Source: Escherichia phage mEp506. Taken from it: a DNA stretch of 40,128 nt. Within the stretch, counting starts at the first letter, position 1, and every line of letters begins with the position of its first letter. The notes beneath the pieces were generated by a model. That model was not told where the DNA came from. It ran no database searches and saw only the letters and a list, made by a program, of their open reading frames with translations. The position numbers and the translations under genes are program-made. Location of the stretch: the sequence record PV340542; one strand, written 5' to 3'. Positions 36,601 to 37,163 of this stretch are shown here, piece by piece.

Positions 36601-37163
36601 AATCAGACGTTCTCCGACTATCAGCAGGCTACGGCCACGCAGATAAACGGCATAACGGCGACGGTGAACGGGCATACCTCCGCCATCACCACTAACGCTC
36701 AGGCGATAGCCAACGTTAATGGCGACCTCAGCGCGATGTACAACATCAAGGTTGGCGTTTCCAGCAACGGTCAGTATTACGCCGCGGGGATGGGTATCGG
36801 CGTGGAGAATACGCCATCCGGCATGCAGTCGCAGGTTATCTTCCTGGCTGATCGCTTCGCCGTCACCACGGCAGCCGGTAACAGCGTGGCTTTGCCGTTT
36901 GTGATCCAGAATGGACAGACATTCATCCGGGCCAGTTTCATCCAGGACGGCACTATCAGCAACGCAAAGATTGGTAATTTTATCCAGTCGAACAATTATG
37001 TTGCTGGTTCTGCTGGCTGGAAGCTTGATAAAGGGGGACGTTTGAGAACTACGGTTCGACTGCTGGTGAGGGAGCCATGAAACTGACAAATCAGACGATC
37101 AGCGTCAAAGATGGCAGTAATGTTCTTAGGGTGCAGGTTGGCCGATTAACGGGAGTATTCTGA
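33613..37163 (+). CDS. J: host specificity / central tail fibre protein J, C-terminal frameshift (main ORF 33613..37080)
   Basis: 1155-aa ORF with lambda J-like N-terminus and fibronectin-type repeats; the likely true C-terminus TFENYGSTAGEGAMKLTNQTISVKDGSNVLRVQVGRLTGVF is in another frame ending 37163, split at a G5 run (37033-37037). Confidence 0.85.

Follow-up and report, generated by a model that had tools for sequence, protein, structure and literature searches.

The J gene of the window (the whole stretch of DNA analysed, 40,128 bp) is best explained, as far as its sequence can tell, as an ordinary 1183-aa central tail-fibre gene ending with the TGA at 37161–37163. As written, its reading frame is broken at a short G run. 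Systematic homopolymer under-calling in sequencing or assembly appears to be the best explanation of this break and of its sister breaks elsewhere in the window, at a probability of roughly 75%. A sequencing chemistry or consensus caller that under-counts homopolymers would have dropped one G of a G6 run from the record, with loss of the J frame as the result. The identical under-count would have affected a dozen other runs, four of them inside int, H (twice) and K. The coordinates of all features are collected in Table 1.

Table 1. Features of the window bearing on the J reading frame, the other interrupted genes and the locus downstream of J.
Feature	Position	Strand	Remark
Integrase lesion, 4-base run vs 5	1108–1111	−	5 in 3/3 loci
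Holin S (lambda-S-type), 14-bp deletion	between 15876 and 15877; gene 15657–15896		not homopolymeric
G/GT tail assembly chaperone −1 frameshift site, G GGA AAG	26762–26768		G = 26373–26774
Tape-measure H lesion 1, A7 vs A8	29117–29123	+	A8 in 19/19 and 25/25 loci (two counts)
Tape-measure H lesion 2, C4 vs C5	30012–30015	+	C5 in 17/17 loci
K lesion, G4 vs G5	31772–31775	+	G5 in 85/85 loci
J ORF (central tail fibre / tail tip host-specificity protein)	33613–37080	+	1155 aa, last 13 out of frame
G5 homopolymer in J, site of one-base loss	37033–37037	+	G6 in relatives
J out-of-frame tail RLRTTVRLLVREP + TGA	37039–37080	+	translation; product of the missing G
Native J C-terminus, 41 codons (TFENYGS...GRLTGVF) + TGA	37038–37163	+	frame one base back
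100-aa gene after J, HK022 gp25 homologue	37165–37467	+	ORF list
212-aa protein, HK022 gp26 homologue	37467–38105	+	presumed receptor-binding-protein locus

Translation of J as written gives a C-terminus of ...GWKLDKGG followed by RLRTTVRLLVREP, with the TGA at 37078–37080. The residues immediately preceding the break are ...NNYVAGSAGWKLDKGG. The G run consists of exactly five bases and falls in codons 1141 (GGG) and 1142 (GGA), so that the frame slips after Gly1142 and is stopped 13 nonsense codons later. The −1 frame, read from 37038, encodes TFENYGSTAGEGAMKLTNQTISVKDGSNVLRVQVGRLTGVF and ends at the TGA at 37161–37163, one base before the ATG of the next gene at 37165. The peptide TFENYGSTAGEGAMK belongs to the J C-terminus in this frame. 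As written, J has no intact frame reaching the end of its orthologues. With a single G inserted, the ORF extends to 1183 aa and equals HK022 gp24 in length.

The J site was compared with the corresponding sequence of related phages and prophages. G6 was found in all 25 fetched loci. In a five-way alignment of the window with HK022, HK633, phi80 and one E. coli prophage, 190 bases around the site were 100% identical save for G5 in the window vs G6. An 80-base query spanning the site was also used, for which a match length of 81 bases denotes G6. All 32 phage records holding this stretch matched over 81 bases, as did 9 of 9 full-length matches in complete E. coli genomes, where they represent prophages. 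Exact searches of viral contigs returned 16 matches to the G6 allele and none to the G5 allele. Three exact matches were obtained in metagenome contigs, all to G6 and none to G5, and neither allele was matched exactly in representative genomes. The 1155-aa J product was absent from a protein-to-contig index by exact look-up. Over the wider J region, 1101 window bases match 1102 bases in HK633, mEp235, HK022, HK106, mEpX1, HK75 and E. coli prophages.

Orthologues of J comprise HK022 gp24 (a minor tail protein resembling lambda gpJ), the J proteins of mEp235, HK633, mEpX1, HK106 and HK75, and phi80 gp21. The window shares 97–98% DNA identity with HK022 gp24 and its orthologues across the last 1.1 kb of the gene. 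Residues 1–1142 show 98.6–99.5% amino acid identity to the 1183-aa orthologues, with mEp235 J at 99.5%. The difference from the HK022 gp24 group is the G5 for G6 at 37033–37037, hence the 1155-aa reading. The gene order I, J, 100-aa, 212-aa, cor and stf is common to the window and its HK022-type relatives, and a single base likewise separates the end of J from the gene after it in the annotations of HK022, HK633, phi80 and the E. coli prophage. The original prediction had the annotated J frame stopping at 37080, a shift at the G5 run, and a true C-terminus in the −1 frame that ends at the TGA at 37161–37163 ahead of a gene start at 37165. Translation confirmed every one of these coordinates, and the −1 frame is 100% identical to relatives over 42 residues. 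All relatives examined carry G6 at the run. Alignment with J homologues found none that ends like the frame as written.

Homology searches with both versions of the protein likewise favored the −1 frame as the native C-terminus. In tblastn searches of the window with relatives' J proteins, residues 1–1142 aligned in one frame and residues 1142–1183 in the other (100% identity). Three Pfam domains were detected in J, all above curated cut-offs: FNIII-A_GpJ (E = 1.6e-50), Phage-tail_3 (5.2e-13) and Phage_Tail_Tip (5.4e-48). The last of these (PF09327) spans the break, and its alignment extends to profile position 135 of 139 in the repaired protein vs 123 of 139 in the protein as written. Repaired J scored 99.6 bits against the T1 J-like protein (PDB 9L9P chain S) and was aligned to the penultimate residue of both, vs 44.4 bits for J as written, whose alignment halts at KGG. 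Repaired J also aligned to within two residues of the end of 9ZE4_N. No homologue was aligned to the tail RLRTTVRLLVREP beyond KGG. The gene lies after H-M-L-K-I and before cor/stf, as annotated in mEpX1, HK022 and HK106. Judged by its domains and gene position, J here is a lambda J-like tail tip / central fibre protein of the TipJ family.

The C-terminal ~225 residues of J align to the T1 J-like fibre (9L9P chain S, 1172 aa; Viruses 2025;17:351, PMC11945409) with E = 3e-49. A motif, GW(K/R)LDKGGTFENYGS...GEGAMK.TN.TISV.D.S..LRVQ.GRLTG, is common to repaired J and the end of the T1 chain, and reaches the final residues of that chain. The N-terminal and central parts of the J-like protein of T1, a virulent phage of the Drexlerviridae, are more divergent from J of the window. 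For the far end of the T1 fibre, the published description goes no further than a long, flexible alpha/beta-helix fold (PMC11945409). Lambda gpJ (PDB 8IYK and others) shares its N-terminal and central Pfam architecture with J of the window and matches weakly in the fibre region. Whereas lambda J has its own C-terminal LamB-binding domain, J of the HK022/phi80/T1 type is without a lambda-like receptor-binding domain and stops ~25 residues past the Phage_Tail_Tip domain.

Megablast against phage records identified the window as a mosaic HK97/HK022-like lambdoid genome of the Hendrixvirinae. Its late region is 97–98% identical to ECP1, HK542, mEpX1, HK75 and HK633, and its early region 94–98% identical to HK106, HK022 and mEp234. 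The collections compared with the window held no identical record. The two ends of the window (1–60 and 39757–40128) are adjacent in HK022 (20283–20654 and 20650 onward), inside the attP region. The window begins on the integrase side of an HK022-type attP and finishes within that attP region. This indicates a whole genome, opened at the att core or close to it and presented in prophage order. The PV3405xx records of re-sequenced mEp phages show the same prophage-order layout.

The J break had been recognized in the original prediction, which missed the rest of the pattern: at least five such frame breaks are present in the window. The tape-measure gene (27096–30375) is broken into three ORFs, which are 705, 273 and 105 aa long. 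Repair of both H sites gives 1093 aa, the length of the ECP1 tape-measure protein. K is split into 31473–31862 and 31727–32182, and one added G produces a 236-aa ORF. The integrase gene (75–1148, minus strand) is frameshifted after codon 13, such that MGRRRSHERRDLP is cut off from the remainder of Int. Addition of one base creates a lambda/HK022-type integrase ORF starting MGRRRSHERRDLPPNLYIRNNGYYCYRDPRTGKEF, with the repaired N-terminus reading MGRRRSHERRDLPPNLYIRNNGYY. The longer integrase run is present in mEp235, HK022 and one metagenome contig. Thus, four single-base insertions restore H (two), K and J, and a fifth restores Int. Downstream of each break, identity to functional relatives is 98–100%.

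Indels were surveyed by comparison of the window with ~120 related loci. Every isolated indel in a well-conserved context was a deletion in the window, and nearly all were homopolymeric. Homopolymer lengths were compared over 37,051 alignable bases. Thirteen homopolymer sites differ from at least some relatives, and the window is shorter at 13 of 13 and longer at none. Scored against the majority of relatives, contraction was seen at 4 of 98 runs of five, 1 of 31 runs of six, 3 of 7 runs of seven and 2 of 3 runs of eight. Runs of three or four gave one difference in 1572 sites, a run of three read as one and backed by a single locus. Non-coding runs were shortened too (19078–19083, 19149–19154, 24314–24317, 25830–25835 and 26334–26339). 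Several of these are the T tracts of terminators, one or two bases below the length in relatives. The run at 33595–33601, seen in the indel survey only, is likewise shorter than in relatives. Some non-coding T-run sites vary among the relatives as well (27079, 16861 and, in one locus, 26334). The 65 substitutions unique to the window showed no clustering at Dam (GATC) or Dcm (CCWGG) motifs and resemble ordinary mosaic variation.

One-directional, length-dependent loss of bases from both coding and non-coding homopolymers is the signature of under-calling. Pyrosequencing, semiconductor and nanopore platforms produce one-base homopolymer indels that run in one direction, become commoner in longer runs and cause apparent frameshifts in intact genes. 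The window resembles the output of such platforms in its one-base losses, direction bias and length dependence, but not in the 14-bp holin deletion. It is the presence of at least five frame breaks of one kind in the window that suggests a technical cause. Were int, H (twice), K and J truly frameshifted, the phage could neither integrate nor make tails. An artefact is favored because these genes are otherwise undecayed, although such frameshifts would bar lysogeny and tail formation. Apart from the breaks, the window has full genome length and closely resembles functional phages. Any single homopolymer site may nonetheless carry a genuine mutation.

A real loss of the G would make the window a defective prophage, either cryptic or laboratory-attenuated, with a 1155-aa J. 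We regard this as unlikely, albeit deserving of serious consideration. J would then lack its conserved last 41 residues, gain 13 junk residues and form no functional distal tip, and the remaining frameshifts and the holin deletion would likewise be real lesions. Slipped-strand loss of one base in G6 is plausible as a spontaneous event, and the prophage order of the window, cut within an HK022-type attP region, fits extraction from a lysogen chromosome. This alternative is kept alive because the deletion in holin S lies outside homopolymers. The missing bases are TAACGAGCGTGTTT in relatives, and their absence cuts S off at residue 73 of 107. They are present in all of the best 25 phage records listed, and the deleted stretch adjoins a short quasi-palindrome, CG-TTATATAA-CG. 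Homopolymer under-calling does not account for this deletion, so that one or more of the inactivating lesions may be genuine. The deletion may be a lysis-defective mutation or an assembly error of another kind. The five frameshifts, however, are all one-base homopolymer losses that depend on run length and are accompanied by no expansions, unlike the spectrum of neutral decay. No nonsense codons, IS elements or gene losses were seen in the late region, nor were any large deletions. Single-base additions return the ORFs to the exact lengths of those in relatives, the high identity to functional relatives persists past each break, and non-coding runs, including terminator T tracts, are contracted as well. 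These observations argue for under-calling over genuine mutation.

A functional J read in two frames would require either −1 slippage on GGG GGA, re-read as G GGG, or a phase-variable switch of the tail tip, and we find this scarcely credible. A −1 slip of tRNA-Gly from GGA to GGG would regenerate wild-type J exactly, and low-level slippage can arise spontaneously on short G runs. It is equally far-fetched that a real G5 is tolerated through low-level tRNA-Gly slippage, with three J copies needed per virion, or that it serves as a slipped-strand infectivity switch in lysogens. The two-frame arrangement was found in 0 of 25 loci, 0 of 32 phage records and 0 of 9 E. coli prophages. The J heptamer, A GGG GGA, does not conform to the canonical X XXY YYZ. 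The predicted fold of the 100 nt downstream is no more stable than those of shuffled sequences (minimum free energy −20.5 vs a mean of −20.55 kcal/mol; z = 0.02), and the downstream J sequence is identical to that of relatives read in frame. Breaks of this type also lie at four further sites, for which recoding would not make sense. A canonical heptamer, G GGA AAG, is found only at the genuine programmed frameshift of the window (G/GT). This slippery site lies four codons before the chaperone stop, and the −1 frame runs on for ~95 codons more, an arrangement as annotated for HK022 gp13/gp14. Programmed −1 frameshifting in J was rejected, with heptamer, downstream structure and conservation all against it.

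Homopolymer under-calling, the preferred reading, has direct consequences for use of the record. Annotation as written gives a truncated J, a split tape measure, a split K and a split integrase, which serves as a quality flag. A false C-terminus would be carried into any receptor-specificity prediction or clustering of proteins that used the 1155-aa J. The record needs polishing before annotation. Were the truncation of J genuine, the phage would be expected to be non-infective. The lesions, if real, would denote a recently inactivated and otherwise unremarkable prophage.

The locus immediately downstream of J (37165–38446) holds, besides the genes of the 100-aa and 212-aa proteins, a 77-aa ORF at the cor position of relatives. 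None of the three products gave a Pfam match. The cor position is annotated in mEpX1, HK022 and HK106, and is followed by stf. The 212-aa protein shows 50% identity to a T1 protein (tblastn), and its homologues occur in many Drexlerviridae/T1-like and Dhillonvirus-like coliphages and in Klebsiella phages. For T1-like and related small siphoviruses, the BASEL study proposed that the distal end of the J-like protein carries a dedicated receptor-binding protein, bound to it non-covalently, and J of the HK022/T1 type is thought to display such a separately encoded protein (PMC8594841). The order predicted from the window sequence (J, 100-aa, 212-aa, cor-position ORF, stf) matches the BASEL arrangement exactly. 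It is therefore probable that the last 41 residues of J form the conserved distal end of a trimeric fibre that bears the receptor-binding protein. This protein would come from the locus just past J, in which cor follows the genes of the 100-aa and 212-aa proteins. Biological interest is confined to the 41-residue J end, which is conserved, is common to T1 and lies just before the presumed receptor-binding-protein locus; published structures and the BASEL analysis already cover it.
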